Shown: positions 29,311-48,267, numbered from the stretch's first letter. The stretch is DNA of 64,000 nt from an uncultured Nitrososphaerota archaeon (GCA_963842885.1 CAWJIE010000002.1:64001-128000), one strand, 5' to 3'. Notes: generated by a model not told the origin, from the sequence alone. A program made the numbers and translations.

Positions 29311-29584
29311 GCGAATCTTCACGCAGACGCCCTCCGCAGAGTGGCACGCCCCGAAACGACGCGCATCTTTTGGTGCCGATGCGCAGCTCGACCTTGTGGG
29401 GTTCGGAATCGCCCACGTTGAACTCATACTTCCTTGGGCCCAGCCACAAGTGTTGGCTGTCTGTTAGTTCCTTGCCATCGACTTCGACCTTGATCCTGCC
29501 GAGCCAGAGACCGCCTGAGTGGTCGACAGCGACGACATGTCTTTCCTTGGTGCCTATCGTGAACCTCGCGCTACCCACATCCAC
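29310..29584 (-). CDS. Small beta-rich hypothetical protein, 3' end possibly degenerate
   Basis: Internal duplication FTIGTKERHVV / FNVGDSEPHKV; the ORF runs on into the convergent gene. Confidence 0.45.
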
Positions 29585-29648
29585 TCTATCGGTATGCCGA
29601 ACCGCTATTTACGGGCCCCAATTCACAGCTCAACCATCTCTTTCAATT

Positions 29649-29891
29649 CTACACATTCTTGTAGCTCAACTCGTTCCTGTAACTCAACACGTTCTTGTAG
29701 TTCGACGCATTCCTGAAGTCCAACTCGTTCTTGTAATTCAACTCATTCTTGAAATTCAACACGTTCCTGTAATTCAACTCGTTCCTGAAGCTCAACTCGT
29801 TCCTGTAGTCCAATTCGTTCCTGTAATTCAACTCGTTCCGTCTGTTCAACGCGAACTCGTATTTCAGTTTAATCCACGCTACCACCACCAT
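29649..29891 (-). CDS. Hexapeptide-repeat miniprotein, consensus N-E-L-[NDS]-[YF]-[RK] x10
   Basis: 18-bp tandem repeat at 29658-29837 whose variants are mostly synonymous or conservative in this frame. Confidence 0.6.
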   Translation of the reverse strand: MVVVAWIKLKYEFALNRRNELNYRNELDYRNELSFRNELNYRNVLNFKNELNYKNELDFRNASNYKNVLSYRNELSYKNV

Positions 29892-29909
29892 TCGCAGACC
29901 AAGCCCACG
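29888..29909 (+). repeat. Core repeat A (variant)
   Basis: CCATTCGCAGACCAAGCCCACG. Confidence 0.8.
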
Positions 29910-29938
29910 CCCGAGATGGCTGATTGAGGAAACCGGCT

Positions 29939-30748
29939 TTATTTGACTATGAAGTACAGAAGGACCAATTGTCCCCATTCGTCACCGCCCGCCATGGTGT
30001 AAAACCCTGGGGCGAACTTTTGCACTTGACTCGGTGGGTAGTTGTAATTCAGATATGTGCCTTGCAAGGGGAACGATCCCGAGACGGGAGCTGTCCAATT
30101 GTTTCCATATGGCTCCCATGTCTTGTTTCCTGAAGGTTGCCAGTACTCAAAGGCGGTGGCGTTGTCGCTCAGGGGCTGAAAGACGAAATATCCGACAGAA
30201 AGAGGAAGGGAGGCTGTCACTCGCGGGATGGTGATTAATGCTTGCGCAGATGAGACATTATCGGGTACATAGTAGCCGCTATAGATGGCAAGCGCCATCG
30301 GAGTGAGGTAAAGGTCTGTCGGAAAGGGTTCCCCACCTGGAAAAGGCAATGGGATGCTCGTGTAGTTGGTTGCCCACCAACTACTCGTGACGTTGTTCGT
30401 CGAGAAGAGGGTGTTCGTTTCGCTCATGGTGACCATTATGGCTCCTCCACTTGGAACCGAAGTTGAGTTGATGGTCAGGCTAAGCTTCAATCCAGTAGAA
30501 GTGCTCGTGACGCTTGTTGTATTGGTCAAGCTGGAAGGATTGAGAGGATACGAGATTGCGCCTGTATGGTTAGGCGCAAGGACATACGCTGCGGCTCCAA
30601 CCAAGAGGACTGCCAACAAGGCGACCGCGACTACTCCGTATGGCGCCAGCAGTCGCCTCCGCTTGGGTGGCAATTCGACGTTGACACTCTGGCCGAGGCC
30701 TTGGCCTGACACAGATGATTGGTACACAAGACTCGGATATAACGCCAT
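29939..30748 (-). CDS. Membrane-anchored extracytoplasmic protein
   Basis: KRRR plus a TM helix, S/T-rich domain, ends GGDEWGQLVLLYFIVK. Confidence 0.78.
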   Translation of the reverse strand: MALYPSLVYQSSVSGQGLGQSVNVELPPKRRRLLAPYGVVAVALLAVLLVGAAAYVLAPNHTGAISYPLNPSSLTNTTSVTSTSTGLKLSLTINSTSVPSGGAIMVTMSETNTLFSTNNVTSSWWATNYTSIPLPFPGGEPFPTDLYLTPMALAIYSGYYVPDNVSSAQALITIPRVTASLPLSVGYFVFQPLSDNATAFEYWQPSGNKTWEPYGNNWTAPVSGSFPLQGTYLNYNYPPSQVQKFAPGFYTMAGGDEWGQLVLLYFIVK

Positions 30749-30795
30749 ACCTGTGGACAGCCCCTCCTCGGCCCAGCACCCTTGTCCTATCCCAG

Positions 30796-30861
30796 TTAAC
30801 CTATTGTTTTCAATGACACAACGATGTACCGTCAGCCCATCTTCGCAGGTCCAAGCCCACG
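30796..30861 (+). repeat. Module B plus core repeat A
   Basis: TTAACCTATTGTTTTCAATGACACAACGATG (30796-30826) ... TTCGCAGGTCCAAGCCCACG (30842-30861). Confidence 0.92.
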
Positions 30862-30896
30862 TCCAAGGTCGAGGTCGTGTGCACGGATGTCCAGCT

Positions 30897-31655
30897 TTAA
30901 GAGGACTTTGCCCACGGTCCGGTTGCCCACGAACTGTGCAAAGTTCGCATGAGATAGAGAGCCGCGTACAAAGAAGATGAAATTAGCAGCAAGGACAAGA
31001 GAGTTCTTTGCGAATAGTCAAACGAAGCCGTGAAGATGTAGACGCTGTGGTAGCCAATATATTCAAGGAACGCAAATCTCAATCCGAATCCTACGGCACT
31101 GGCTAGAACGAATCTGACCGCACTCATCTTCAGCGTCCCTGCGGCCAAGGAAGTGACGCTGTAGAAGTACGGTATGAAGGTGGATATGAAAATGGAGAAA
31201 TGGCCGTGTTCTGCCAACCATCTATCGGCAGCCTCGATGTCCTTCTCGGATATATCGACATAGGACAGGCCCTTCAGCAGTATCCGTCTGCCCGCAAATC
31301 TGCCAGGGACGTATTCTATCGGAAGCACGGCGGCCGCGAGGCATACCAAAAACGTCGTATACGGATCGAATACCCGTATTGATGACAGATAACCATATGC
31401 CGGAACGAGAAGGTAATCAGGTATTGGTAGAAAGGCGAGGCTGACGAACATGCCGATATAACCCGCTAACAGGAGTGGCGACGAATAGCCCACCTTGCTG
31501 ATATCATAGGACGATATGTTAGCGAAATGGAGATAGGCGTTCAGCAGGGCCAGGGCGCTCAGCGATATGACGAGCATCGAAATCACGAAAAGATAGTGCC
31601 AATATTTGTAAGGCAGAGCATGTTCGCCTCCTCTGAACCGGTGTGTTGCGCTCAT
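30897..31655 (-). CDS. DedA/VTT-family membrane protein
   Basis: FLPIPDYLLVPAYGYL, WLAEHG, FIP..SLAAG.LKM...F. Confidence 0.85.
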   Translation of the reverse strand: MSATHRFRGGEHALPYKYWHYLFVISMLVISLSALALLNAYLHFANISSYDISKVGYSSPLLLAGYIGMFVSLAFLPIPDYLLVPAYGYLSSIRVFDPYTTFLVCLAAAVLPIEYVPGRFAGRRILLKGLSYVDISEKDIEAADRWLAEHGHFSIFISTFIPYFYSVTSLAAGTLKMSAVRFVLASAVGFGLRFAFLEYIGYHSVYIFTASFDYSQRTLLSLLLISSSLYAALYLMRTLHSSWATGPWAKSS

Positions 31656-31802
31656 TCATCGTTCTCTCCGCATCTCAGGAACTGTCGTGTCGTTCGAAAC
31701 GATTTACTACGTTACGTATTTAGTTTTTGAGGGGCTCTTCTTCAGGGCGTACCTCAACCAGCCCTACGTCTGAATGATTCTGTGACCGTCGTTAGCGTAA
31801 AC

Positions 31803-31858
31803 ACTGTTTGACCAAGCTACAGGTTGGGCAAACTTAAGAACCAATAACAGTCATAGGC
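31803..31858 (+). repeat. Module C
   Basis: ACTGTTTGACCAAGCTACAGGTTGGGCAAACTTAAGAACCAATAAC; matches 32765-32820 and the reverse complement of 44701-44735. Confidence 0.85.
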
Positions 31859-31989
31859 TATCCTTCCGCCCTCGTTCAGATAACCTATAGATAATCGCAG
31901 ATTTGCTAGCCAAACTCAAGCGACGTGCCGAAGCCCAGAAGGAAGAATGTATTTATAGACGCTTCTCGAGGTTTTCATGGTATCACAGA

Positions 31990-32361
31990 ATGCCTTCTTC
32001 AGATGACGACATCCTGGCGGAACTTCGAGAGATCCGGAAGCTGCTCACGCCCGCTCCTGCACCTACCCCCAAGAAGGGGTTCATGAATGAGTTCAAGACC
32101 TTCCTGGAAAACTACAAGGTGCTGGGACTGGCGGTCGCATTCATCCTCGGCATCTACCTTGGAGCCCTGGTCAAGTCCCTGGTTACCGACCTGGTAATGC
32201 CGATCGTATCGTACGCCCTCCCGAAAAACACCAACATCAACACGTACATGGTTGGCCCGTTTGGCATCGGCGACTTTGGCAATAGCGTCCTGACCTTCAT
32301 CATCGTCGCTTTGGTCATCTTCCTGATTGTGAAGCTAGCTGAACGGGCGAACATCAAGTAA
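31990..32361 (+). CDS. mscL: Large-conductance mechanosensitive channel
   Basis: EFKTFL..YKVLGLAVAFILG..LVKSLVTDLVMP..GDF...LTFIIVA.VIF; TATTTATA upstream at ~31950. Confidence 0.9.
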   Translation: MPSSDDDILAELREIRKLLTPAPAPTPKKGFMNEFKTFLENYKVLGLAVAFILGIYLGALVKSLVTDLVMPIVSYALPKNTNINTYMVGPFGIGDFGNSVLTFIIVALVIFLIVKLAERANIK

Positions 32362-32764
32362 TTCGGCAAAGGGTATCGAATCGTTCGGTCAGCAGCTCTT
32401 CGGGAGCTCATCGAAGGGCCCTCTTTTTTTCGCAGTCATCAACCAATCAATAAGCCTGTGCGAGACCCAGCTGCAGGGCATCTCAGAGAGCCGTTTCAGT
32501 GGTTTCTCGATAGAGATTGGGGAACCTTTGTGGCCACGTTCCTCTACTATTACTGGAGCATCGCCCACGCCTTCGTCATCCCTTCGATCGACGGGCCCTA
32601 GCTCCTCTACCTATTGCTTTCTCGCCTCTCAGACCTTTCAAGAGGATGTGCAGCGCTTTTTCTGATGCCGTCTCAGCAAACCAATAAACAAACTCACTTT
32701 ACTATTAGACGGTTAAATTAGACATATCATCTGATGGATTGCAAAGGACCGCGAAAGCTCGATT

Positions 32765-32820
32765 CCTATTTGTCTAAGCCACAGCTTGGGCAAACTTAAA
32801 GACCAATAACGGCCGTGGGC
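32765..32820 (+). repeat. Module C
   Basis: CCTATTTGTCTAAGCCACAGCTTGGGCAAACTTAAAGACCAATAACGGCCGTGGGC. Confidence 0.85.
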
Positions 32821-32950
32821 CAAGTGTTGCCCTCGATTTGGGGGGCGTCCACTTGAACTCCGCGGCCCCGGAGGCGTGTCTTGCGCCGTCATCAGGATGG
32901 TCACTAACACCCAAATACGCCCTGCCCTACCAGTCTGAGAGGTACAGTGC

Positions 32951-33937
32951 TTGCAGGACATCATAGAGGTGGAAGACCTCGTCGTGGTGTATCCTGACGG
33001 AACGCGAGCTGTCGAAAATGTTTCATTTAGCGTCAAAGAGGGCGAGTTCTTCGGATTTCTAGGCCCGAACGGGGCGGGAAAGAGCACTACGATCAAGACT
33101 CTGACGACCCTTCTCCACAAGACCTCCGGCCAGGTCTCGGTCGCCGGTTATGACTTGGACAGGTTTCCAAAAGAGATCCGGAGGTCCATCGGCGTGCTGA
33201 CCCAGGAGACGAGCATAGACGTCGACCTCACCGGGAGGGAGAACCTGCGTCTCCAAGGGAGCCTGCAGCAGCTTCACGGCCAGGTTCTTGAGCGGCGTAT
33301 CGACGAACTGTTGAAATTGATGCGGCTGGAGGATGTAGCGAAGAAGCCCGCGGGTCGTTACTCCGGCGGAATGAAGAAGAGACTCGACTTGGCTTCGGCC
33401 CTGATTCACAAGCCGAAGCTCTTGTTCCTGGACGAGCCGACCAATGGCCTCGACCCTCAATCACGCTCCGCAATCTGGGAGTATCTGGAAGGCTTGAACA
33501 AGAATGAAGGCACCACGATCTTCTTGACTACGCAGTATCTGGAGGAAGCTGACCGGCTCTGCCGTGAGCTCTCGATAATCGACCACGGCAAGATCATCGC
33601 GAGTGGAACTCCTTCGGAGCTCAAGGCTGCGGTGGGAGGTGACAAGATCACTCTCACCTTGAAAGACGCATCGCTGAGAGCGAGGACGAGAGAGATCCTC
33701 AAGACGGTCCAAGGAGTCACCAACGTCATGGATTCGGACGACGGCGTTGTCGCCTATGCGAAGAACGCGGGCCAGATCATAGCTGACGTCGTTGCGACTT
33801 TGGACCGAAACGGCATCCGACCATCCTTCCTCAGCATCTCCTCTCCCACCTTGGACGACGTGTTCTTGCGCGAGACCGGTCGGAGCATCAGGCCCGAGGA
33901 GCTAACGAGGAAGGAGACGGAGCCGTTTCTTATGTGA
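32951..33937 (+). CDS. ABC transporter ATP-binding protein (DrrA-like)
   Basis: GPNGAGKST, YSGGM, LFLDEPT, PTLDDVF. Confidence 0.95.
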   Translation: MQDIIEVEDLVVVYPDGTRAVENVSFSVKEGEFFGFLGPNGAGKSTTIKTLTTLLHKTSGQVSVAGYDLDRFPKEIRRSIGVLTQETSIDVDLTGRENLRLQGSLQQLHGQVLERRIDELLKLMRLEDVAKKPAGRYSGGMKKRLDLASALIHKPKLLFLDEPTNGLDPQSRSAIWEYLEGLNKNEGTTIFLTTQYLEEADRLCRELSIIDHGKIIASGTPSELKAAVGGDKITLTLKDASLRARTREILKTVQGVTNVMDSDDGVVAYAKNAGQIIADVVATLDRNGIRPSFLSISSPTLDDVFLRETGRSIRPEELTRKETEPFLM

Positions 33938-33946
33938 GCTGATTGG

Positions 33947-34714
33947 ATGACGATATTCCGCGACACGCAATCACTCTTGAAGAGGGGCCTGACAAAACTC
34001 GTCAGGAATCCAACCCTGCTTGCGACGAGTCTGGTCGAACCCTTGTTCTTTCTCCTGATCTTCTCGCAGCTGTTCCAGAAGCTAGGCGTCTTTCTGCCAG
34101 GCGAACCGGGAGGCTATCTTGCTTACCTTACTCCGGGGATTGTAATGTTTTGCGCCCTCATAACTTCTCCTCAGAGCGGAGTCTCGATCGCGAATGATCT
34201 GAATTCGGGGTTTCTCTCGAAGATGCTCCTGACTCAGGTATCGAGGCCTGCAATCCTATTGGGGAGGCTGCTGACGGATGTGTCCATGGTCGTAGCGCAG
34301 ACATTGATCACGATCATCGTTGCGATTGCGATGGGGGTGAGAATCTCCTCTGGGCTACCTGGAATCTTGCTCATGCTCCTGACGGTTGCGTTCTTTGAGC
34401 TGGCGTTTTCGGGGATCTTCCTTGCGATTGGGATGAGGACCAGGAAGACAGAGACGATCTCCGCCCTGGCTGGATTCCTCTATATGCCGCTGATCTTTTT
34501 GAGCAGCGCGATGTTTCCTGCTTCATTTTTCCCCTCTTGGGTGCAGACTATCTCCAGTTACAACCCCGTGAGCTACGCCTCGGACGTGACACGCGAGCTT
34601 GTACAGGGCGGACTGACCCTCAGTACGCTCGCGTCCGCGTACGCGTTGATCGGAGTCATCGCGATTGTCACCTTCGCAGCCACCCTGTACCAGTTCAGAA
34701 AGGTGATAAGCTAG
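33947..34714 (+). CDS. ABC-2 type permease
   Basis: About six TM helices, YLTPG, FLSSAMFP, NPVSY; adjacent to the ATPase. Confidence 0.93.
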   Translation: MTIFRDTQSLLKRGLTKLVRNPTLLATSLVEPLFFLLIFSQLFQKLGVFLPGEPGGYLAYLTPGIVMFCALITSPQSGVSIANDLNSGFLSKMLLTQVSRPAILLGRLLTDVSMVVAQTLITIIVAIAMGVRISSGLPGILLMLLTVAFFELAFSGIFLAIGMRTRKTETISALAGFLYMPLIFLSSAMFPASFFPSWVQTISSYNPVSYASDVTRELVQGGLTLSTLASAYALIGVIAIVTFAATLYQFRKVIS

Positions 34715-34988
34715 TCGACGGGTGATTGCGGCGTTCACATGCATCCGGGTGACCGTCACGAATACCATCGACAATTCCCCCTATTCGGTCAATATCAGGT
34801 TCCTTTCCGCCAGCCTGACGAGCCAGCTGGACTGGGCCTATGCCATAATCTGGTACCGGGGAATAGAGAGCGTGACTCCCTATGTCTACTGCATGATGGT
34901 CAACTCATCTGCTTTCATCGTCTCGATTCCCGGCGGCCCTCCGGTCTGACTTCAGGGGCGTTTGGTCTACCATTTCGCGCCCCCTAGA

Positions 34989-35016
34989 CCAGCCCATTCG
35001 CAGGTCCAAGCCCACG
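34989..35016 (+). repeat. Core repeat A
   Basis: CCAGCCCATTCGCAGGTCCAAGCCCACG. Confidence 0.92.
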
Positions 35017-35134
35017 TCCTGAAACAAAGCTCGATCGATTATCAGCTCAACATTCATATCTTGGCAATACCTCAGTCTTCTACACGACCCAAGACAGTTC
35101 AGGTAAAACAGGGTACATTGCGATAGCCATCTTC

Positions 35135-35521
35135 TTGGTCGGGCTGGTGGCCTTCTTCGGACTTCAAGCATCTTTTGGGTCTGGTCTGCACACACAAATT
35201 CTTTGCAGCGAGAAGTTTGTTCTATGGGCGGCGACGGACTCATCGAACACCTCGCTTGTCATTTCTGTAACAAACAATGGGTGTGGCGCAGCGACCGTCA
35301 CTCAGGTCTTGTTTGACAACGCGTCGGTCGCGCTGAGCAGCATGACCCCTGAAGGGAATTTCACGAAAACCTCAGCCGGCGCTTTCCAACTGGCATCCGG
35401 GAAGACAGGAGAGCTGCTGATTGAGAAGTCCTCCCTAGACGTCAGTTCGGGACAGAGCTATGACATCTTGGTAATCACGGCAGCAGGGAACAGCTACCCT
35501 TCTCAGGGAGTCTGGCCGTGA
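35135..35521 (+). CDS. Archaeal pilin-like small secreted protein (5' end unclear)
   Basis: Hydrophobic N-terminus, ISVTNNG, C-terminal SGQSYDILVITAAGNSY. Confidence 0.6.
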   Translation: MVGLVAFFGLQASFGSGLHTQILCSEKFVLWAATDSSNTSLVISVTNNGCGAATVTQVLFDNASVALSSMTPEGNFTKTSAGAFQLASGKTGELLIEKSSLDVSSGQSYDILVITAAGNSYPSQGVWP

Positions 35522-35541
35522 GTTGCCTCTTCCTCATCCAA

Positions 35542-35608
35542 TTAATCAATTGTTTTCAATAACACAAAGATGAACGATCCCAGCCTATTTCGCAGGTCCA
35601 AGCCCCCG
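35542..35608 (+). repeat. Module B plus core repeat A
   Basis: TTAATCAATTGTTTTCAATAACACAAAGATGAACG..CCAGCCTATTTCGCAGGTCCAAGCCCCCG. Confidence 0.92.
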
Positions 35609-35714
35609 CCGCTTCACATAAGAGAGAGGAGCAAGCAAGTTCCACTAAAATCACGCGAGTTGAAGACTAGGACCGCGCCCCCCATTGAAGAGCAGCTTCC
35701 TCCTCACTTCGCTT

Positions 35715-36695
35715 TCATCCCGACCCGAGGACTATTGGAGCCATGATGTCCACGTTGAGGGTGACCTGATAACTTTGTCCGTTCATCAAGAGATTGACAA
35801 CTACAGTCTGTTCCTCGTAGGGGCTGTTCTGGGGAGCACTGACTGTAGTGAAGAAGTAGCGCACCTGATATGGCTGAATCGTAGTGACAAACGGCTGCGT
35901 TGAATATGGGGCGTTGAGGTCGTCTTGGTCATAGGACCACATCTTGAGCCAGCTGGCAGTCACCATGGTGGATAGTGATACACTGAGATTCGGAGCGTTC
36001 GCCGAGCTCGGCACATAGGCTATGCCCCAGAGTATGTTTTCGTGATGCCCCGGATTGACCACCACGCTGGGGTAAATCGGCAGTGGACTGCCTCTTGAGC
36101 CGGAGCCTATCAAGAAGACTGGCTCGGTGGGCTCAACAGGGACGGTGATGTTACCTGTTCCGAATGCGATGATGAGTGGCACCGTGGAGGGAGTGGCACT
36201 CGATGATGACACGACGCCGCCCGCCAGGTATAAGGTTGCATTGCCGCTGCCATCCGCGCCAATCGTGACCGAGGAAGCCGAGAGCCAGGCAGCAAGAGGG
36301 ACTTGAGGAAGGTCTAGAGCCAGGGGGATGGTTGTTCCAGGCTGCCCGCGGACTACGATTGGGAAGGCCTCCCCTGAGACCATACTGATTCCACCGTCGC
36401 TGAACGTGAAAGCGATACCACGACACGCTGCGTTCTCCACGGTCGCGTTGAAGCTCCCGTCGGTGAAGGTGAAGCCAGGCAGAGTCCAGCAGGATACTGT
36501 TGGATAGCTGTAGTTAGTGGTCGGCGTCGTTGTACGGAAAGTGATGGTTGGGAAGGGGGAGTTGTAGTAGCTGAAGGGCTGAGGTTGAGCTGTGGAGGAA
36601 GCTTTTGGCAAGACAACGACTGCAAGACCCGCCACGTCCAGGAGGAGCAGGGCAAACGCAATCGTCACCAATATCTTGCTGACCGCCCTTCTCAA
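35715..36695 (-). CDS. Secreted or membrane-anchored hypothetical protein
   Basis: MRRAVSK plus a hydrophobic segment; beta-rich S/T/P body. Confidence 0.75.
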   Translation of the reverse strand: MRRAVSKILVTIAFALLLLDVAGLAVVVLPKASSTAQPQPFSYYNSPFPTITFRTTTPTTNYSYPTVSCWTLPGFTFTDGSFNATVENAACRGIAFTFSDGGISMVSGEAFPIVVRGQPGTTIPLALDLPQVPLAAWLSASSVTIGADGSGNATLYLAGGVVSSSSATPSTVPLIIAFGTGNITVPVEPTEPVFLIGSGSRGSPLPIYPSVVVNPGHHENILWGIAYVPSSANAPNLSVSLSTMVTASWLKMWSYDQDDLNAPYSTQPFVTTIQPYQVRYFFTTVSAPQNSPYEEQTVVVNLLMNGQSYQVTLNVDIMAPIVLGSG

Positions 36696-36830
36696 GCCAA
36701 ATCCAAGCTCATGGTACCGAGGGACAGCCCATAAACCTAGGCCTTAGAACGACTCGATTCTCTTCCAGACAAGACCCAGTTCAATCAGACGGTCGACAGA
36801 ACTAAATGCTAATAGGAAAGAGACGGCCAA

Positions 36831-37199
36831 ATGGAGGACAGACGTCTGATGGCAAGGCTGAGGCTGCACAGGCGGACGGCCATCCGTGTGGGCATGCTGC
36901 TCGTAGCCGTTTCCTTCGTGGGAGCCCTCATCGGGAGTGCGATCGCCAATGCTACACAATCCGACCCTCTGGCCTTCTATGCCGTGGGCGGGACAATAGG
37001 GTTCTCCGGCTTGATTCTGCTTCTAGTCTCTCCCTTCCTGCCTCAGCCTCGTGGGGATGAGTACCGTGGGATGGGTGACCTTCTGTCACAAGAGAAAGTC
37101 CACTACGGCAACTACGCAGTGGGCAACTGGCGGACCACCCTCGACGAGATGGACAAGGAAGACAAAGAGAAGCGAAAGCGTGAAACCGACCACCAGTAG
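36831..37199 (+). CDS. Small two-TM membrane protein
   Basis: Two hydrophobic helices and a charged tail. Confidence 0.65.
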   Translation: MEDRRLMARLRLHRRTAIRVGMLLVAVSFVGALIGSAIANATQSDPLAFYAVGGTIGFSGLILLLVSPFLPQPRGDEYRGMGDLLSQEKVHYGNYAVGNWRTTLDEMDKEDKEKRKRETDHQ

Positions 37200-37210
37200 T
37201 CATCGAGAAG

Positions 37211-37258
37211 ACAGAGATGAACTGATTCAGCTCCATTCTTCCCAGGTCCAAGCCCACG
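37211..37258 (+). repeat. Degenerate end of module B plus core repeat A
   Basis: ACAGAGATGAAC...TTCCCAGGTCCAAGCCCACG (core 37239-37258). Confidence 0.85.
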
Positions 37259-37635
37259 TTCCTAACCGGGCGGTTTATGTCGCTAGATTGAATCCGGCAA
37301 GCGTGTTCGGGCAGTGAACAGTATATCAGAAGGCAGCCATGCAGTTCTTCATATCAAACGGAGGACGATCGCCGCCGACGCAATCCTGCTCGTCATAGGT
37401 TTTGTCCTGCCCGTCCAGCCCACCAAGGCGCCGACGGCCACAGCTATAGCGCTGCTCGGATGAAAATGTGCAGAACCAAAGGCCGGAGCTGAACCAGGCT
37501 CCATATGAGCCGAAGGTCCAAACCGGTCTGCGCCTGGGAACACCATAGATTTCTCGGCAAGACAGGACGGCCGGAATGTGTTCTCTATGGTGCGACCGGC
37601 AAAACTTTATACATACGTAGGAATCCCACGTTCCC

Positions 37636-38859: not shown

Positions 38860-38891
38860 GGCGGACCTCCAATCGGCTCGGTGGCGGTTCC

Positions 38892-39827
38892 TTGATCAGG
38901 GTGGGGCGGGGGGACGCCAGGCTCGTGGCCTGGCTGGCGGTCACGTCCTTCGTCGCCGTCACCCTTTATCTTAGACAGCTGATGCTTCTGGTGTCGGGGC
39001 TCGATGAGCTCCTCACCTCGACCCTCGGGACCGTCTTTCCGGCGTATCCCTTCCTCGCCCTACTAGTCCTCCTCACCGCGCTCCGCTGGAAGGACTTCCA
39101 AAGGGCATTCGCTGCCGAAAGGGGGCTGGTCACCAAACCATGGATTCGGCTTGCAGGGGTGGCGTTGATCCTCCTTCCGGCAGCGCTGTGGGCCCTCTTG
39201 TTCGGCCAGGGAGGGGCGCCGACGCAGTATCTTGGGATGGAGTTGGCCGCCTCCTCTCTGGTGTTGGTAATATATGGCAGCCTGTTGGCGACCAGCCCCA
39301 CGCTCTGGAGGATGATGCTCCCCTACGCATCCCTGTATGTGGTAGGACTGGTCTCACCGCTCTTCTTAGTGGAGGCGCTGGGGGGGCAGCTGGCTTCCCT
39401 GTCGAGCGGAATGGCGGCCGTCATGACGAGAGCTCTTGGGATCCCAGTGGCATGGCAGGGCGTCTCGTTCTCCTTCGTCTCCGCTGCGGGTGAGCCCATA
39501 AGCTCGGTCGTGACGCCCGCCTGCTCGGCGGTCTACTCCATCGGCATATACCTGGGCCTCCTCGGCCTGATGTACTTGGACATGAGGTCCAGCCCGACGA
39601 CGATAGCCGAGTTCGCCATCCTAGGGGTAGCCATCATCCCGCTCCTCGACTCTGCGAGGATCGCCATCACGATCTGGTTCGGCTTCGAAGGCGGGTCGGC
39701 CGCGTTCTGGGGCATCCACGATTGGCTCGGCTACGCCCTCTTCCTGGCCTTCTACATCGGGGCCTTGCTGGCATACTCTAGGACGGTCAGTAGGCCTTCA
39801 GGGCCGGCAAGCACCTTCACACCCTGA
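38892..39827 (+). CDS. Exosortase/archaeosortase-family protein
   Basis: Polytopic; VTPACS (Cys), DSARI (Arg), IHDWLG (His) in family order; directly downstream of a VPEF protein. Confidence 0.85.
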   Translation: MIRVGRGDARLVAWLAVTSFVAVTLYLRQLMLLVSGLDELLTSTLGTVFPAYPFLALLVLLTALRWKDFQRAFAAERGLVTKPWIRLAGVALILLPAALWALLFGQGGAPTQYLGMELAASSLVLVIYGSLLATSPTLWRMMLPYASLYVVGLVSPLFLVEALGGQLASLSSGMAAVMTRALGIPVAWQGVSFSFVSAAGEPISSVVTPACSAVYSIGIYLGLLGLMYLDMRSSPTTIAEFAILGVAIIPLLDSARIAITIWFGFEGGSAAFWGIHDWLGYALFLAFYIGALLAYSRTVSRPSGPASTFTP

Positions 39828-39893
39828 CCCCTGGCGCATTTAACTTCACATGAAACCCCACGCTTAACTTACAGCCTCCAAGGAGGGCCCGTT

Positions 39894-39970
39894 TTCGCAG
39901 GTCCAAGCCCACGCCGAAGATGGGCGGCTAACGAGACAGTAATCCTTCCCAGCATCGATAGATATCCAAA
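39894..39970 (+). repeat. Core repeat A followed by module D in reverse orientation
   Basis: Core at 39894-39913; CCTTCCCAGCATCGATAGATATCCAA (~39944-39969) is the reverse complement of module D. Confidence 0.85.
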
Positions 39971-40004
39971 AGGGTCAAAAGCCCGCCTGCCTATACTCTC
40001 ACCA

Positions 40005-40157
40005 ATGCCAGTCTGCGACGTCTGCGGCAAGATCGTGAAAGACCTGAGAAGGCACAAGGCCCGTGGCCGCTGCGGCAAGAAGGGGAAGACGACGCGGGCG
40101 CCGCCTCGCAAGTACCAGCAGGGGACGCCCGAGTTCAGGTTGGGCCTGGACCTCTAG
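40005..40157 (+). CDS. 50-aa basic zinc-finger microprotein (CxxC...H...C)
   Basis: Hand translation MPVCDVCGKIVKDLRRHKARGRCGKKGKTTRAPPRKYQQGTPEFRLGLDL*; below the ORF-track cutoff. Confidence 0.6.
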   Translation: MPVCDVCGKIVKDLRRHKARGRCGKKGKTTRAPPRKYQQGTPEFRLGLDL

Positions 40158-40294
40158 CTCTCTGGATGGAGGTCGCCGCGACCGTTGGGGCGACCATGGG
40201 ACTCGGCCAGTATCGCGACTATTAGGCTCAGGTCGAAAGGTAGGACGTAATCCGGGTGTTATGTTTATCTCCTTCACTGTGCGAAGCACGGCTC

Positions 40295-40522
40295 ATGACG
40301 CTATATGCGAGGGTGATGTCGTGGTGGACGGTCGGTCCGGGGGGCATCGCTGACAAGAACCTGTCAAAGAACCTGAGCAATATCATGGAGGCCATCCAGA
40401 GGGGCGGGGGGAAGATAACGAGCTTGACTTCTCAGCTTCAGGCCTTTCAGCTTCAGGCCATAAATCAGGGAGTAGTCCTGTACTTGATTCAGTACGAAGC
40501 TTCTTCCTACATCGATGTCTGA
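40295..40522 (+). CDS. Small hypothetical protein
   Basis: 75-aa ORF with TTTAT about 27-30 nt upstream. Confidence 0.55.
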   Translation: MTLYARVMSWWTVGPGGIADKNLSKNLSNIMEAIQRGGGKITSLTSQLQAFQLQAINQGVVLYLIQYEASSYIDV

Positions 40523-40560
40523 CTCAGATCGGCTGTCTCGTGGCTAGTTTCGCATGCACG

Positions 40561-40626
40561 TTGCTGCTGGAAAAGAAATCAATATCATTCAGCCGCCCAC
40601 CCCAGACGTGGGCTTGGACCTGCGAA
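40561..40626 (-). repeat. Module D plus core repeat A (inverted)
   Basis: TTGCTGCTGGAAAAGAAATCAATATCAT (40561-40588); CGTGGGCTTGGACCTGCGAA (40607-40626). Confidence 0.92.
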
Positions 40627-40652
40627 GATGGGGTAAGGTTAGGAGCTCTGAG

Positions 40653-41141
40653 TTACGCGTGGGGTTTCGGGTCGCTGTTAAATGCCTCAGATACAGAAGT
40701 TGGACTGAGATGATTCACTCCGCCGTGGCCCTTGACTGGGGCTATGATCAGGACTCCGCTAGCGATAGCGAGGTAAGGTCCCGTCGCTGACCCAGGTGCC
40801 AGCGCGAAGCCCTGGATGTACATATCACAAAGCCACATGGCGACCGCCGCGAACACGATTCCTGCAGGGTACGCGGCCGAAAAATCGTAGTCCCTCAACA
40901 GCAAGAGGGTCAAGAGGAACGCGAGAGGGTACATGACAAGCACAATCGTGAGCAGATAATCTTGGGTGATCACTCCCCCGGTGTAATAACCGATGTCACC
41001 GCCCAAGACTAGGGAGTAGATGCCCCACAGCGACACGCCCGCTCTGTAATTGGTCGGGAGCCTGTTGGTGCTCACCCAGGGCAGGAACAGGGCGAGCAGA
41101 AGGAGTATCGTTCCGGCGATAACTATCCCCTTCCTGATCAA
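40653..41141 (-). CDS. Four-TM membrane protein
   Basis: LFLPW N-terminal helix, GPYLAI; four hydrophobic segments. Confidence 0.75.
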   Translation of the reverse strand: MIRKGIVIAGTILLLLALFLPWVSTNRLPTNYRAGVSLWGIYSLVLGGDIGYYTGGVITQDYLLTIVLVMYPLAFLLTLLLLRDYDFSAAYPAGIVFAAVAMWLCDMYIQGFALAPGSATGPYLAIASGVLIIAPVKGHGGVNHLSPTSVSEAFNSDPKPHA

Positions 41142-41285
41142 ATCCTGAGGTCACCGAAACGAGCATCCCTTTTATGGTTTTACGAAAAGTTGAGCTGGCA
41201 GGTTTCGGCACGCCTCCGATAGCCACGCGTACGGGCATCGACCTCGATCTCCAACGTCAAAGAGCTTGAACCAAAGACCCGTGGA

Positions 41286-41432
41286 CGTGGGCTTGGACCT
41301 GCGAATGGGAGCCACCGTAGGATGCCCTTGGATATCTGTCGCTGCTGGAAAAGAAATCAATATCATCGGCCTGACCGACGACGACTTCTCAATCGCTTAA
41401 TCATCTTTGTGTTATTGAGAACAATAGGTTAA
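41286..41432 (-). repeat. Core A (inverted) plus module D plus module B (inverted)
   Basis: Core 41286-41305; D 41328-41368; B 41402-41432 CATCTTTGTGTTATTGAGAACAATAGGTTAA. Confidence 0.92.
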
Positions 41433-41506
41433 TTGAACGAGGGCTGAAGACGGGACCTCGACCGTTCGGGAACCACTTATAGGCTGGCTCGAATATGTAA
41501 TCACTG

Positions 41507-42370
41507 ATGAACCACAAGGAGGAGCTGATGGTAGCCGCTGCACTCATTTTGACGGCTACAGCTTCCTTCCTGGTCGTCTGGGCGTATTATGGCCCAAGCA
41601 GCCACCCAGCGACCGGCATCTGTGGCGCTGGTATGGAAGTGAACATCAGCTCCACGAAGTATTGCGCCCTCGATGTAACGGCCGATTCAGAGATTCTCGT
41701 AGAGGGAGGCTACACTAGGCTGACGCATCCCGTCGTCTATATGGGAGTCAATTTCACGACGTCCTGCGGAAACGGTGAACGGTGTGGAAACATCGGGTGC
41801 CCACCGTCCAACACAACTTGCGTAGCGATGACTCTGGGCGCTATTAAACTGAACATGGTATTCTCCGACGGCACTAACGAGACTGTGAATGCGGTCATAG
41901 GCGACTCTATGCCAGGACCAACGCTGTCTCAGCATTCCAACCCGAGGGCGGGCTTCGAGATGGAGGGACCTTATACCTCTCCGAAGCTTCTTCTCCTGGT
42001 TCAGGAAACGGCGCCTTCAAGTGGGCAACCATCAGGAGTGCTCTACGACGTGACCTTCCAGCAGGACGGAGCGTGTTCTCCCGAAGTCTGGGTAGGTACT
42101 TGGTCCGTGACAGTCGGGAATCAGACCATAGTGCTACCGCAGGGCACGCCACTACCGCTGGACGACCATAGCTGGGCGAGCACGCAGAGCCAGAGCCTCT
42201 CTGCCATCACCTTCGCCCTCCCTGATGGGTCCTACACATATCAGGTTCATCCTTCGGACGGGTTCGGCGGCTTGCAGAACCCGGGTGTCGTGGAGGTCAG
42301 CGGAAGGAACGTCGTGATTCACATCTCTCCTGTGTTTTTGTGCACGACTACAGTGGCCGTGACTCCTTGA
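41507..42370 (+). CDS. Membrane-anchored Cys-rich extracytoplasmic protein with a thermopsin-C-terminal-like beta repeat
   Basis: N-terminal TM helix; YDVTFQQ.G....WSVTVG...ITFALPDGSYTYQV. Confidence 0.75.
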   Translation: MNHKEELMVAAALILTATASFLVVWAYYGPSSHPATGICGAGMEVNISSTKYCALDVTADSEILVEGGYTRLTHPVVYMGVNFTTSCGNGERCGNIGCPPSNTTCVAMTLGAIKLNMVFSDGTNETVNAVIGDSMPGPTLSQHSNPRAGFEMEGPYTSPKLLLLVQETAPSSGQPSGVLYDVTFQQDGACSPEVWVGTWSVTVGNQTIVLPQGTPLPLDDHSWASTQSQSLSAITFALPDGSYTYQVHPSDGFGGLQNPGVVEVSGRNVVIHISPVFLCTTTVAVTP

Positions 42371-42384
42371 GCCAATAATCAGGC

Positions 42385-42450
42385 CGTGGGCTTGGACCTG
42401 CGAAATGGGCTGGCTCGTTCATCTTTGTGTCATTGAAAACAATAGGTTAA
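42385..42450 (-). repeat. Core A plus module B (both inverted)
   Basis: CGTGGGCTTGGACCTGCGAAATGGGCTGGCTCGTTCATCTTTGTGTCATTGAAAACAATAGGTTAA. Confidence 0.93.
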
Positions 42451-42605
42451 TTGAATGGGGAAAGGGTCGACCAGCTGTCACGGAGTAGATTCCCAGGTGG
42501 CAACTGTTGGTCAAGTCAGAGCGGGAGATGGTACGCCTGCTGAGGACCCCTCCAAATTCAGCTCAGGCATCCACCCCGAGCAAGGGGACTAGCTGAGCGC
42601 GAGCA

Positions 42606-43880
42606 TCAACTGAGAGTGAAACGCGTCAAGTATGCGAGAACTAGAGCGCCGGCCGCGCAAAGGATGGCGGCGTACGTGAAGGCCACCGCAGGCGAAATCA
42701 GGGTCCAGAGCAGGCCGACGACGAAACTGGACGTGAAGTCGCCTATGCCGTTCACCGTCTGAAGGAGGCCGTAGCCCGTGCCGCGCACGTCCGAGGGAAG
42801 GAGGTCGGCGGCTGCCGCTCCCTCGACCGTGTCCGTGATGGCGTTGAAGAGGCCAGCCAGGGCGAACGTCGGAACGAGCAGCAGGAAGTCTCCCGTAAGG
42901 TAGGCCGCCAACACGGATGCCGCGGCCGAGATGATGTATCCGGCAGCGAGGACCCTCCTCCTCCCCACCCTGTCGCTGATGACACCGACGGGGACGCAAG
43001 CGGCCGCGTAGACGAGGTTCAGCAGGGTGTACAGGCCCACGGCGACGACACCGGCTGAGACTACCCCCATCCTCGGTGAGAGGACCTCCTGGGCCCTCAG
43101 CGTGAACAGGCTGTTGGCGAAGTTGCCCAAGCCGAAGACTCCCACCCCGAGCAGATAGAGCTTGAAGGGCCTCGGCAGTCCCTTCAGCGAGGCGATGAAG
43201 CCCTTGTCCTGCGTTCCGACGGGGCCGGACGGCACCCTCTTCGGCCTGTTCTTGATCTCCTTCACCAGCAGGAGGACTACAAGGAAAGCCATTAGCCCGG
43301 GCACGAACGATATGAAGAACACGTCTCTGTAGGAGAAGAACTGGATGAAGACCAGAGCCAACGCCGGACCCAGCGTGGCCCCAATGGTGTCCAAGGCTCT
43401 TTGGAAGCCGAAGGCCGTCCCTCGCACATCCGCCTCGACCGACTCGGAGAGAAGCGCGTCCCTGGGAGGCCCCCTGGCCCCTCTGCCCATCCACCCCAAG
43501 ACCCTTAGAACCAAGACCTGAGGCCACGTTATGGCAAGGCCTATCGCCGAGATCAACGCCCCGGTCACGGCATATCCCAGATTCATGACCGGCTTCCTCT
43601 TGCCGCTCCTGTCGCTCAGGTATCCGGAGAACGACTTGGTGAGGCTGGAGAACCCGTCAGAGGCACCCTCTATGAGGCCGAGCACACCAGGGCCGGCCCC
43701 CAGCTGGACCGTCAGGAAGAGCGGCAGGATGGCCGTGGCCATCTCGTGGCTCGCGTCGCTGAGGAGGCTTGTCAAGCTGATGTAGAACACGTTCTTTGTG
43801 AGCCAGCGTTTTCGCGACAGGAAGCCGTGAGGAGAGGACAACTCAATCAGTCCTCCGGTTCCGGGAGCCCGCATCTGCAC
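42606..43880 (-). CDS. MFS transporter (start probably somewhat downstream of the ORF start)
   Basis: SGYLSDRSGKRK, GRGARGPPRDALL, GVISDRVGRR; about 12 TM helices. Confidence 0.92.
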   Translation of the reverse strand: MQMRAPGTGGLIELSSPHGFLSRKRWLTKNVFYISLTSLLSDASHEMATAILPLFLTVQLGAGPGVLGLIEGASDGFSSLTKSFSGYLSDRSGKRKPVMNLGYAVTGALISAIGLAITWPQVLVLRVLGWMGRGARGPPRDALLSESVEADVRGTAFGFQRALDTIGATLGPALALVFIQFFSYRDVFFISFVPGLMAFLVVLLLVKEIKNRPKRVPSGPVGTQDKGFIASLKGLPRPFKLYLLGVGVFGLGNFANSLFTLRAQEVLSPRMGVVSAGVVAVGLYTLLNLVYAAACVPVGVISDRVGRRRVLAAGYIISAAASVLAAYLTGDFLLLVPTFALAGLFNAITDTVEGAAAADLLPSDVRGTGYGLLQTVNGIGDFTSSFVVGLLWTLISPAVAFTYAAILCAAGALVLAYLTRFTLS

Positions 43881-44403
43881 CTACGGGTCCTGATTTGTCT
43901 TGGAAGAGAACCACTGACCGCACGGGTTCAAGGTATTTCTTCACTAATTCATCATCCTTAGCTTCGGTGGTTGAGTCGGCTTGCGAAGATGAACCAAGCA
44001 GCTTTCTTAAGGTTTCGTTTTCCCTCTTGAAGGCGTTGAGCTTCATGGCCACGGTCTTGCATCCGTTGTACTTCGAGTAGTATTCAAACTTTAGAGAAGC
44101 CAGGGGAGAACCAATCCTGGCATGCCGCGCCCGCAGCTCCTGGAATCGCTCGTCAAAGGCGCTCACTCTTCAGAGGGAGCGTGGGGTTCCTTGCAGGGCT
44201 AGGGCTCATGTCTTACTACCTTCAAGACTGGTTGACCGTCGTGATGGTGGTGGTAGCAATATGCCCCGCCGCGTACCTGTAGTTAAAAGAATGAGATTTC
44301 TTCGGTTCCGTCAAGTCTGAGGGCTTCCCCACAAGCTGTCAAAAGTCGGTGTCAGGCGCGAAGGTGTATATCTGTCATCCCATGAATCGAAAGGTGAGAA
44401 GGC

Positions 44404-44652
44404 ATGAAAAGAAGGGCGGCTTGGTCATTGAGGGCTATTGTCATCGGAATTGGCAGCGCGTGGGTGGTTGTGGGGTTCCTATGGTTTGCTGCTACGGGCG
44501 CATTTTCCGGGCAACTGTCTACAGTCCCGATTGTCACTCCGATTCTCAGACCGGTCTCGATACTGATGATGCTCGTCGGTGCATTCGTCATAGCTATTGG
44601 ATTGCTGATGGCGCGAACATCTAAACCCGTCGTAACACGAAGTGGAGGGTGA
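44404..44652 (+). CDS. Small two-TM membrane protein
   Basis: MKRR plus two hydrophobic helices; stop codon 13 nt before core A. Confidence 0.6.
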   Translation: MKRRAAWSLRAIVIGIGSAWVVVGFLWFAATGAFSGQLSTVPIVTPILRPVSILMMLVGAFVIAIGLLMARTSKPVVTRSGG

Positions 44653-44664
44653 GAGAGCTCGAAA

Positions 44665-44735
44665 TGTGGGCTTGGACCTGCGAAATGGGCCGATTCAGGT
44701 TTAGGTTTGCCCAAGCTGTAGTTTAGGCAAACAGT
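44665..44735 (-). repeat. Core A plus module C (both inverted)
   Basis: TGTGGGCTTGGACCTGCGAA (44665-44684); TTAGGTTTGCCCAAGCTGTAGTTTAGGCAAACAGT (44701-44735). Confidence 0.9.
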
Positions 44736-44802
44736 AATTGCACCTTCAGAAGAGTGCGCGTCATGCAAAAGGCGTTTTAAGAGGGGTGGTCATCGTTGAC
44801 TA

Positions 44803-45414
44803 ATGAATCGACTGGCCTGGGGAGTCATTGCTTTGGGGACCGGCTTGGCGGGGTTCCTCGTGGTGGCTTTCGCTTCGCCTCTTTTCGTTACGCGGCGCAC
44901 GCAGGGAGGCGGAGGAATGATGGGCGGGTCCGGCATGAATGGGAACCTTGTTGGGATGATGACTTGGTGGTTCCAAGCCGGAAACGGAGCCTACTCATAT
45001 CCCTCGGGACTCTGGCTCCTCCCTGTCGCCCTCCTTCTGTTGATGGTGATTGGAATCATCATAGTGGGCTATCAGGCGATCCTACCCGAAATCAAGAGCC
45101 CACCCGCCTCAACCACACTCATATCACCGGCTCAGCCCGTTTCACTCCAGGCGAACCAGGCTCCTGCTGCCTCACTTGAAGCGGTGCTTCGGACTCTCAG
45201 ACCGGACGAGAGGAAGGTATTCGATGTCCTCCTGACGCATGACGGACGATACCTCCAGAAGCTCCTGAAATCCGAGACGGGCCTCAGTCGGCTCCAGGTT
45301 CATAGGGTGGTTTCACGCCTAGTTGAGAGGAACTTGATTACAATGAAGGCAGTAGGGAACACCAATGAGATATCAATAGCAGGCTGGGCGTTAGGGGATA
45401 AGAAAGAACCGTAG
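44803..45414 (+). CDS. Membrane-anchored winged-HTH regulator with a Met/Gly-rich external loop
   Basis: TM-GGMMGG-TM, then LRPDERKV....G..LQK.L..ETGLSRLQVHRVVSRL.ER.....GNTN.I. Confidence 0.85.
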   Translation: MNRLAWGVIALGTGLAGFLVVAFASPLFVTRRTQGGGGMMGGSGMNGNLVGMMTWWFQAGNGAYSYPSGLWLLPVALLLLMVIGIIIVGYQAILPEIKSPPASTTLISPAQPVSLQANQAPAASLEAVLRTLRPDERKVFDVLLTHDGRYLQKLLKSETGLSRLQVHRVVSRLVERNLITMKAVGNTNEISIAGWALGDKKEP

Positions 45415-45425
45415 AGGGGAAGGTT

Positions 45426-45752
45426 TCACGGCAGCGCCGTCTGGTTGAAGAAGCCCGCCATGGCGTTCCTGCACCACGTGAGCATGTCGCCGAAGTCCCA
45501 CGTTGAAGTGGCGTTGGAAGTGCCGCTGGGAGAAGCCCTCAAGCCCATCATCCCACCCATCATCCCTCTTCCCGTCTGAGATCCACCGCTCTGCCCACCT
45601 GCAGACGACCCCATCATCCCGCCCCTCTGATAGGAGGCGTTAGAGGAGGAAGTCGTCGTCTGGGCGAACGCGGCTACTCCGAATAGACCCGCCACTACAA
45701 GCAGGCCTGCTATCGCAAGCGCTTTCCAACTGTTGGTCATTTGATTAGACAC
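45426..45752 (-). CDS. Small secreted Met/Gly-rich (GMMG) protein
   Basis: Signal peptide; GGMMG and GMMGGMMG; MLTWC. Confidence 0.75.
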   Translation of the reverse strand: MSNQMTNSWKALAIAGLLVVAGLFGVAAFAQTTTSSSNASYQRGGMMGSSAGGQSGGSQTGRGMMGGMMGLRASPSGTSNATSTWDFGDMLTWCRNAMAGFFNQTALP

Positions 45753-45791
45753 CGGCTATTATGAGGCATCGCAAGGGGTATAACACTTGGC

Positions 45792-45849
45792 TGAAACGGT
45801 TCTCACTGTCAAGATGATACGTTCCTGATACGGTTCCTGAAACAGTTCA
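45792..45849. promoter_or_regulatory. Four ~12-bp direct repeats TGAWAC(R)GTTC upstream of the GMMG-gene TATA box
   Basis: Copies at 45792, 45815, 45826 and 45838; minus-strand TTATA at ~45779-45783. Confidence 0.6.
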
Positions 45850-45857
45850 TGCTTCGC

Positions 45858-46511
45858 CTACCCTGCGTACAGGACATAAATGCCCACAGCAGCGATTACG
45901 AAGCCCACGAGCGCGTAGTTATACTTCGGAGGAACCCTTGCGAATACCTCCGATAACCCCTTCGACCCCACCAGTACCAGTAGGGTCAGCGAAAGGATCG
46001 AACCGGCGGCGAATACTATGGCAGTGTCTATTGCTAGACCAAGTCCCATTGGTACGGCCAGCAGGAAGATGGGCAAGATGCTCAGGTCAGGCGAAAGGGC
46101 TCCCCCAAGGACCGCGAAGTATCCAACGCCCCTTCCACCTCTCCTCCCTATTCTAGCTCCCTCCTTCTCGGCCTCCTTCTGGTAGTCCTCCTTGTGATTG
46201 GAGACGATAGTCCACACTCCGTAGAATGCCCCAGCCAAGAGCATCACACCCCCTATGGCCGTAGTCAGGTATTCAGATACTGCTCGGGTGAACACTACTC
46301 CCAGAAGTACGACGGCGAATCCGAGCGCAACGGAAAGGACGACGTGACCAAAGGCAGTCACCAAGCTGACCGCCATAAGCCTGGACGTGCTCCACTTGGA
46401 AGTCTGAGCTAACATGCAGAGGGTAACCCAATGGTCAGGCGCTGACATGTGCAGCACGCCGACAAGGGCGGCTGCAGCCAGAAGCGGGAGTACTGCGACC
46501 AAGACAACCAT
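45858..46511 (-). CDS. Ni/Co transporter-like membrane protein (UreH/RcnA/NiCoT-like)
   Basis: LHMSAPDHW motif, GHVVLS; about six TM helices. Confidence 0.8.
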   Translation of the reverse strand: MVVLVAVLPLLAAAALVGVLHMSAPDHWVTLCMLAQTSKWSTSRLMAVSLVTAFGHVVLSVALGFAVVLLGVVFTRAVSEYLTTAIGGVMLLAGAFYGVWTIVSNHKEDYQKEAEKEGARIGRRGGRGVGYFAVLGGALSPDLSILPIFLLAVPMGLGLAIDTAIVFAAGSILSLTLLVLVGSKGLSEVFARVPPKYNYALVGFVIAAVGIYVLYAG

Positions 46512-46586
46512 CAGGGGAACGGGTTGACGCGAAACGGAAGACGGTTGCCCAAGTACTTTGCCCTACCAACGAAATAGGGTTCAGCG

Positions 46587-46606
46587 AGTGGGCTTGGACC
46601 TGCGAA
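46587..46606 (-). repeat. Core repeat A (inverted)
   Basis: AGTGGGCTTGGACCTGCGAA. Confidence 0.9.
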
Positions 46607-48264: not shown

Positions 48265-48267
48265 CGG

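Follow-up and report, generated by a model that had tools for sequence, protein, structure and literature searches.

A 20-bp sequence, here called the core, recurs between genes along 64,000 nucleotides of DNA from an uncultured Conexivisphaerales archaeon, and our analysis gives good support for its being the site at which gene cassettes are joined in a polar system that resembles integrons and is confined to a single genus of that order. This stretch, the window, comprises positions 64001-128000 of contig C2 in a metagenome-assembled genome (MAG; G000) of 2.03 Mb in 11 contigs, and was compared with genomes of four other species of the same genus (G001-G004); metagenome contigs (L060, L072, L078, L088, L091 and L092) were in turn compared with these genomes. 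We determined the anatomy, distribution and polarity of the site, and observed that homology switches across the core, that cassettes move and that strains differ by one cassette plus one core. The most likely mechanism, in which we have moderate confidence, is site-specific recombination by an enzyme acting in trans.

The 20-mer TTCGCAGGTCCAAGCCCACG, for which a match with no more than three mismatches was counted as a core copy, was present ten times in the window, with five copies on the plus strand (30842-39894) and five on the minus strand (40607-46587); the chance expectation was 0.02 and ten copies were reached in none of 100 shuffles. The original prediction had listed 11 copies, ten of which are strong, while the one at 29890 is degenerate. 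The core consensus is TTCGCAGGTCCAAGCC(C/T)ACG. Positions are numbered 0-19 within the 20-mer, with -1 the last upstream base and +20 the first downstream base. An ungapped profile of all genomic copies contained 1.5-2.0 bits of information per position at 0-15 and 0.8-1.5 bits at 16-19. The edges of the block were sharp, and its flanks held no signal apart from a weak TCC after the core and a weaker upstream element, box 1, (G)TCAGCCCAT, found at a variable spacing of 0-3 nt. The direct dyad claimed to lie within the repeat is real (AGCCCA).

The genome-wide scan proposed with the original prediction revealed 61 core copies in G000, of which 59 were placed between genes by a crude in-house gene caller. 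Clustering was observed, with 41 neighboring pairs within 8 kb compared with 12.5 at random (maximum 22 in 1000 trials); spacings ranged from 167 to 7816 nt (median 1373) and at least 11 separate arrays were present in the 2-Mb genome. Neighboring pairs were co-oriented in 39 of 41 cases, the exceptions being the switch in the window and one on contig C4, and the same was true of 71 of 71 pairs on metagenome contigs (61 whole contigs). The gene downstream of the core had its start facing the core at 27 of the 61 copies and its stop at 34; the cores are polar, yet independent of gene direction. Within the window the reported proximity to stop codons was also seen, the distances of 12-39 nt fitting the list of open reading frames (ORFs).

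The four congeners contained 29, 68, 75 and 6 core copies. Among 36 genomes of other genera, 35 had no core and one class-level relative had a single match with three mismatches. The species-genome collection contained the exact 20-mer, with C or T at position 17, in 34 stretches; these came from three MAGs, all of this genus and titled Conexivisphaerales or Nitrososphaerota archaeon. It was also present in 65 Joint Genome Institute (JGI) metagenome contigs. Comparison of random pairs drawn from 267 non-redundant core sites gave 86-99% agreement at core positions 0-15 and 25% in the flanks; this contrast argues in favor of selection acting on the core sequence itself. The cargo consists of surface beta-propeller and Ig-like proteins, ATP-binding cassette (ABC) and major facilitator superfamily (MFS) transporters, signaling proteins and many proteins of no known function. 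A dense array of single-ORF cassettes on contig C59 of G003 has 14 cores in 12 kb, and its segment 4483-12054 (locus L013), with 12 cores in 7.6 kb, is the densest array seen and has, for the most part, one small ORF per cassette, pointing the same way as the cores; several of these carry a TATA-like ATAAGAA 10-18 nt past the core.

The 19.4-kb array region is syntenic in no congener and its pieces match scattered contigs. When the array regions of G000, G002 and G003 were compared, 55 of 292 ends of homologous blocks were no more than 30 nt from a core, where random placement gives 2.9%. Among the 267 non-redundant sites, in the 22 pairs which shared the upstream side only, homology continued through box 1 to position -1, and in the 31 pairs which shared the downstream side only it began at position +20. 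The exchange point is therefore located within the 20-bp core, and box 1 moves with the upstream cassette. Whole cassettes bounded by two cores were found to recur in new surroundings: C2:26698-28843 of G000 corresponds to G002:C112 (88% identity over 2.2 kb), window 34997-35589 to C4:335.6-336.2k of G000, with its left side also matching G002:C51, and a cassette on contig C8 of G000 to one on G002:C93.

Three strain-level differences had the form A-core-B-core-C versus A-core-C (letters denoting successive segments), that is, one cassette plus one core. G003:C27 has two cores (310 bp) where L088 has one, between flanks which are 99.96-100% identical. G002:C112 differs from L060 by 1420 bp, with a 7.4-kb flank 99% identical and the 128-nt flank at the start of L060 92% identical, and the third single-cassette difference separates L091 and G002:C93 (296 bp) from L072. 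Informative bases placed the crossover at positions 0-17 for G003:C27/L088 and at 7-22 for G002:C112/L060, an overlap of 7-17, or GTCCAAGCCCA. Gene content and order do change at the repeats between strains and species, as had been anticipated. Metagenome contig L092, which is 97-98% identical to the window, carries the cassettes of 41507-42370 and 40653-41141 in reversed order, then joined to 49068-48803; the joint of the swapped order falls in module A, one of three repeated modules described below. The same contig links the inner end of the minus array to the region of a tRNA-Met fragment (window 40607-42993 and 48803-49068), as would result from circular permutation or tandem repetition of the 8.4-kb segment 40.6-49.1k in that strain.

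A cassette consists of one to a few genes (approximately 0.2-8 kb), usually with box 1 at its 3' end, and neighboring cassettes are joined through the 20-bp core. We propose that excision and insertion would proceed by recombination between two cores: a putative circular intermediate with one core would insert at a chromosomal core, after which the cassette would be flanked by cores in direct orientation and a single direction would be preserved throughout the array. Exchange would most likely take place in the central GTCCAAGCCCA, through a sequence-specific factor encoded elsewhere.

A number of observations weigh against this proposal. The remaining 237 of the 292 homology breakpoints were away from cores, and modules A and C and an AT-rich module also occupy joints; thus the cores are at joints as predicted, but not every joint is this repeat, and modules A, B, C and the AT-rich one are also found at breakpoints. 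In the third strain difference (L072) the crossover mapped to AAGCC, on the left side of box 1 and beyond the interval of the other two, and therefore no fixed cleavage point is established. The claim that the repeats are recombination sites of a gene-capture system stands as far as they are joints of a cassette-like array; that exchange at them is site-specific is no more than probable, one crossover of three falling outside the core. The core has no clear dyad symmetry, which is unusual for tyrosine or serine recombinases. The evidence from peat sequencing runs consists of assembled Logan contigs, in which coverage gaps carry no meaning, and these contigs gave no direct sign of excision. Core-to-core and module-to-core joints in them were rejected as evidence of excision because their sides were only 22-33 nt, making them mere repeat matches. 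The ends of metagenome contigs were not enriched at cores (25 of 122 within 300 nt, 24.1 expected), and the idea that assembly breaks concentrate at cores was rejected on these counts.

The search for an enzyme adds further points on the same side. The window had no match to PF00589, PF01797, PF00239, PF07282 or PF01548, families with matches elsewhere, and PF16795 had no match in any of the five genomes; the absence of a recombinase gene from the window, as originally stated, thus agrees with the result for all six families searched. For the putative recombinase acting in trans, we found no candidate conserved across the genus. Matches to PF00589 in G000 were confined to contigs C3, C4 and C5, with no tyrosine recombinase on the 286-kb contig C2, which carries 24 cores, and G004 had no PF00589 match at all. 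Zn-ribbon tyrosine recombinases were only 31-36% identical between species and none was near a core, and no close homologue of the integrase that sits inside the array of G003:C59 was found in G000, G001, G002 or G004. Tyrosine recombinases were rejected as the enzyme on these grounds. A serine recombinase was found in one of five genomes (G000 only), and the single Y1 HUH gene (PF01797; C5:213342-213695) forms a pair with a TnpB gene at C5:212-213k, approximately 50 kb from the nearest core. Clustering of 1424 ORFs from array loci returned cargo families only, and in a Pfam census of 127 proteins from G000 array regions IS110 was the sole recombinase among 25 of the 141 families. A 50-residue basic ORF with a C-x2-C-x9-H-x5-C zinc-finger pattern (40005-40157), which lies between the two converging arrays of the window and has related DNA in all four congeners, was rejected as a site-binding factor, its three copies in G000 not being tied to cores.

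The main rival, which we regard as rather unlikely, is that the cores have another role (as the site of a chromatin, boundary or termination factor) or none, and that general short-homology recombination or replication slippage shuffles the cassettes at the cores simply as the one sequence common to unrelated modules, with no dedicated recombinase. Neither the products nor the polarity of short-homology recombination would differ; a circle with one core that undergoes homologous exchange with a core in the chromosome likewise ends up between direct repeats, and polarity therefore does not separate the two models. The lack of a conserved recombinase in our survey of the genus fits this explanation, as do the three mapped crossovers without one common point and the use of other repeated modules as breakpoints, including the L092 joint in module A. 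It leaves unexplained, however, the presence of a core at nearly every array joint in five species and the similarity of 16 core positions (86-99%) between species where flanks are random. Nor do the cores favor the start or the end of a gene (27 versus 34), as already noted in the genome-wide scan, and in most organisms efficient homologous exchange needs far more than 20 bp.

It is conceivable, although we would not expect it, that the system captures genes by a mechanism of a new class, with an asymmetric, unstructured, double-stranded 20-bp site and an enzyme, neither IntI nor Xer, which would build and reshuffle many cassette arrays in each genome. Such an enzyme could be of the RNA-guided IS110/bridge-RNA kind or belong to an unrecognized family, possibly on a virus or plasmid missed by MAGs. 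A contiguous, fully conserved, non-palindromic site suits reading by a guide RNA rather than by a protein dimer. IS110-family genes are the sole recombinase seen inside arrays, yet the copy examined is programmed for module C and not for the core.

Alongside the cores, and always oriented the same way relative to them, are three repeated modules with 19 (A), 12 (B) and 27 (C) copies in G000, and some breakpoints were inside these modules instead of the core. Module A, which ends in ATGA, may be promoter-like, judging by its sequence. The IS110-family element (approximately 1.28 kb, with subterminal inverted repeats CTTATGAAAGACGCCC) was found in G000 at C3:1345-2709, C3:189165-190519 and C7:18992-20294 (loci L120-L122), with the transposase gene broken in one copy. 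Insertion was precise in three of three copies, between ATCTATTGCTG and CTGGAAAAG of module C (compared with 27 empty sites), and without obvious duplication; cores were located 14-35 nt outside module C at these insertions. With all three copies in module C, the core was neither the target nor the end of an IS110/IS1111 element. The IS110-family transposase, which adjoins cores in all three G000 copies because its target often sits beside a core, was rejected as the core enzyme. The left-end non-coding region of the element (190 nt) contains UUUCCAGCA, which by eye is complementary over 9 nt to TGCTGGAAA of the target, as would be expected of a bridge-RNA guide; folding of this end gave z = -0.10. 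This complementarity to module C would therefore explain the position of the element itself, not that of the cores. No member of the family was detected in G001, G003 or G004; MAGs often lose copies of insertion sequences (IS).

That core and modules are themselves small selfish or structural intergenic repeats, spreading on their own and attracting insertion sequences, with the cassette pattern secondary, we consider improbable. The models for this would be repetitive extragenic palindromes (REP), with their bacterial interspersed mosaic elements (BIME) and REP-associated tyrosine transposases (RAYT), and the Neisseria intergenic mosaic elements (NIME) with dRS3. As in those systems, the repeats are genus-specific, intergenic and mosaic at junctions, the joints being assembled from modules A, B and C in the copy numbers given above, and an IS110-family element targets one module, C, precisely in three of three copies; IS110/IS1111 elements insert into REP and attC sites. 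In contrast to them, the core has no terminal inverted repeat, and no hairpin or palindrome was found in or around it (z about -0.1). There is also no RAYT, the sole PF01797 gene being the one described above, which neighbors a TnpB gene far from any core and is not REP-flanked. The repeats here bound whole gene cassettes, which move with a core at each end, and not just repeat units of 50-150 bp, and we found no case of collinear flanks differing by a small element alone. One solitary core (C4:136305) allowed comparison of both its flanks, and in the G003 orthologue the same gene is likewise followed by a core and then by different DNA; no informative orthologue was found for the solitary core at C3:249680.

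Replication polarity (Ter, KOPS or Chi type), with the switch at 39.9/40.6 kb as terminus, is most improbable and was rejected as a general explanation: in the window five or six plus copies are followed by five minus copies, with modules A and C switching at the same place, and on C4 an Orc1/Cdc6 gene (344.7k) lies near the second orientation switch and a turn in GC skew, but C3 switches +, -, +, - without matching skew turns and with its Orc1/Cdc6 gene (234k) 45 kb from the nearest switch, the copies are confined to accessory islands, approximately 0.2-8 kb apart and coinciding with homology breakpoints, and in metagenome contig L078 (95% identity) other DNA adjoins the left side of the segment that separates the two arrays, so that the two arrays are not always adjacent.

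Functionally, the closest known systems are sedentary integrons and clusters of attC sites lacking integron-integrases (CALINs). As in these, the arrays are co-oriented series of small, unrelated, mobile accessory cassettes, mostly of one gene and approximately 0.2-8 kb, with a conserved site between them that within a lineage is more alike than the cargo; the same cassettes are met again in new orders and surroundings, single cassettes distinguish strains, and most arrays have no recombinase alongside. They differ in that the site is 20-28 bp, unstructured and non-palindromic instead of a 55-140 nt attC hairpin with R''/R', that a 2-Mb genome holds at least 11 separate arrays instead of one or two, and that genes stand in either direction (27 versus 34), with some cassettes seeming to carry a promoter-like module of their own. 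The predicted lack of an attC hairpin was confirmed, as the box pair RYYYAAC..GTTRRRY within 320 nt was found at 0 of 60 copies (0.75% of random windows) and folding of 51 copies was no better than that of shuffles (mean z of -0.13 centered, -0.24 upstream and -0.20 downstream). Neither attI nor IntI was found, IntI being judged from PF00589 matches. The archaeal integrons of Ghaly et al. 2022 (PMC9668308) use canonical attC and IntI.

The resemblance to dif modules, also put forward originally, did not hold in the way that to integrons did. Like the dif/pdif modules of Acinetobacter plasmids and Xer-exploiting elements, small accessory modules are bounded by sites of approximately 28 bp with the recombinase encoded elsewhere. 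Sites of the dif type consist of two inverted 11-bp arms separated by a 6-bp spacer, and their modules are flanked by sites in alternating orientation; the cores here neither alternate nor form palindromes, and are direct repeats (39:2 and 71:0). The best dyad in the core, found by eye, was CGCAGG/CCCACG around TCCAAG (four of six bases), which is not significant given the many registers, and an Xer-like gene was seen in G003 only. Tandem tRNA islands (tycheposon type, with tandem att repeats) also have direct short repeats between cargo modules, and only 2.4 kb separate the minus array of the window from a tRNA-Met 3' fragment, the neighbor in G002 being an intact tRNA-Met; however, modules here are without integrase and the core does not derive from a tRNA, as none of the 31 tRNA genes contains an 11-mer from the extended core. 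The accessible part of Krupovic et al. 2019 (PMC6563490), on integrated elements of thaumarchaea, reports tandem integrations and nothing like the core arrays. As predicted, there was no CRISPR period (approximately 55-80 nt) in the core spacings given above.

Other readings of the core were also rejected. It can be translated as PIRRSKPTS within a 64-residue ORF (41172-41366), but is not coding sequence because indels of 0-3 nt ahead of the core shift the frame between copies. Rfam covariance models gave no match in the window at the gathering score and none around the IS110 copies, and a small RNA or Rfam family was not retained. Guide-like 11-nt matches to the core elsewhere in G000 numbered 43, many of them overlapping and at about chance level, except for left-half core sites at C4:341193 and C7:11437, which break off after core positions 11 and 13, and a few degenerate copies.

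The coordinates of cores, modules and cassettes in the window are presented in Table 1. The intervals between cores contain unrelated genes, as was first described, including VTT/DedA, MscL, an ABC ATPase and permease pair, MFS transporters and DUF7343; two ChrB_C genes sit past the last core copy. Between cores 37239 and 39894 a single two-gene cassette (37636-39827) encodes an NHL/beta-propeller protein with seven internal repeats of approximately 126 nt, followed by an exosortase/archaeosortase-family gene, so that a sorting enzyme is carried along with its likely substrate. At 29612-29866 a tandem array of at least nine 18-nt units (60-78% alike) lies inside overlapping ORFs on the plus (29286-29927) and minus (29649-29978) strands and may encode a hexapeptide-repeat protein.

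Table 1. Cores, modules, cassettes and tRNA fragment of the window, positions counted from its first nucleotide.
Feature	Position	Strand	Observation
Degenerate core copy	29890..29909	+	1-nt deletion, nhmmer E = 0.023; peat-strain contig match starts exactly at 29910
One-gene cassette	29910..30861	+	Different DNA on either side in peat-strain contigs, with exact cuts at 29910 and 30861
Core copy after module A	30842..30861	+	0 mismatches; peat contig match ends exactly at 30861
Module B, short hairpin	31795..31865	+	Other copies 32766-32820 (+), 44700-44747 (-)
Core copy, start of cassette 34997-35589	34997..35016	+	Cassette also in G000 C4 and G002:C51
Core copy after module A	35589..35608	+	20-mer match
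Core copy	37239..37258	+	G003:C52 homology stops exactly at 37258
Last plus core	39894..39913	+	Flanks form a 78-nt inverted repeat with flanks of 40607 (pair I2)
First minus core, orientation switch	40607..40626	-	One of two switches in G000
Two cassettes (genes 41507-42370, 40653-41141)	40627..42384	-	Order swapped in L092
Core copy after modules A and C	41286..41305	-	20-mer match
Module C, empty IS110-family target	41320..41372	-	Partial copy 40560-40588, degenerate copy 39943-39969 (+)
Core copy after module A	42385..42404	-	Peat contigs start here
Module A, ends ..ACACAAAGATGA	42405..42470	-	Other copies 30793-30829 (+), 35526-35580 (+), 41401-41442 (-)
Core copy after module B	44665..44684	-	20-mer match
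Core copy nearest tRNA-Met side	46587..46606	-	G002:C58 homology ends 8 nt beyond core
tRNA-Met 3' fragment, 15 nt	48991..49005	-	Outer edge of minus array; same flank meets intact tRNA-Met in G002

No tRNA gene was detected in the window itself. The tRNA-Met fragment beyond the outer edge of the minus array, together with 179 nt downstream (48812-48990), is 87% identical to the region after an intact tRNA-Met at C5:32529-32781 of G000, and in G002 an intact tRNA-Met is followed by the same three genes (window 46646-48756), beyond which the array is different and much shorter. The fragment probably marks an old integration site. Elsewhere in G000, the first codons of a tyrosine recombinase gene (C4:323310-324515) read through a tRNA-like T-arm sequence (VGSNPTP..). 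This gene is located at the edge of a low-GC region (47-55% G+C, C4:290-360k) with an Orc1/Cdc6 gene and a core cluster, and the region is likely an integrated element.

The literature searched contained no description of this cassette system, in agreement with the original view of it as undescribed, and a 13-mer of the core appeared in literature text only in two unrelated papers on the eukaryotic flagellum and rat cardiomyocytes. New in the present analysis are the localization of exchange within the core, the three strain differences of one cassette each, the relation of the IS110-family element to module C and the negative survey for an enzyme. Integrons are the only well-understood machines that gather single genes into arrays, and the archaeal ones reported use the bacterial-type site. 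In the present case, an entire genus of uncultured archaea from soil and peat has dozens of cassettes per genome joined by a different and very simple site. If exchange is driven by an enzyme, this would represent an independent invention of gene capture in Archaea, and a recombinase with a short asymmetric target would be of practical interest. Even if exchange is driven by homology, the site explains how the accessory islands of these archaea assemble and why the assemblies of strains differ.

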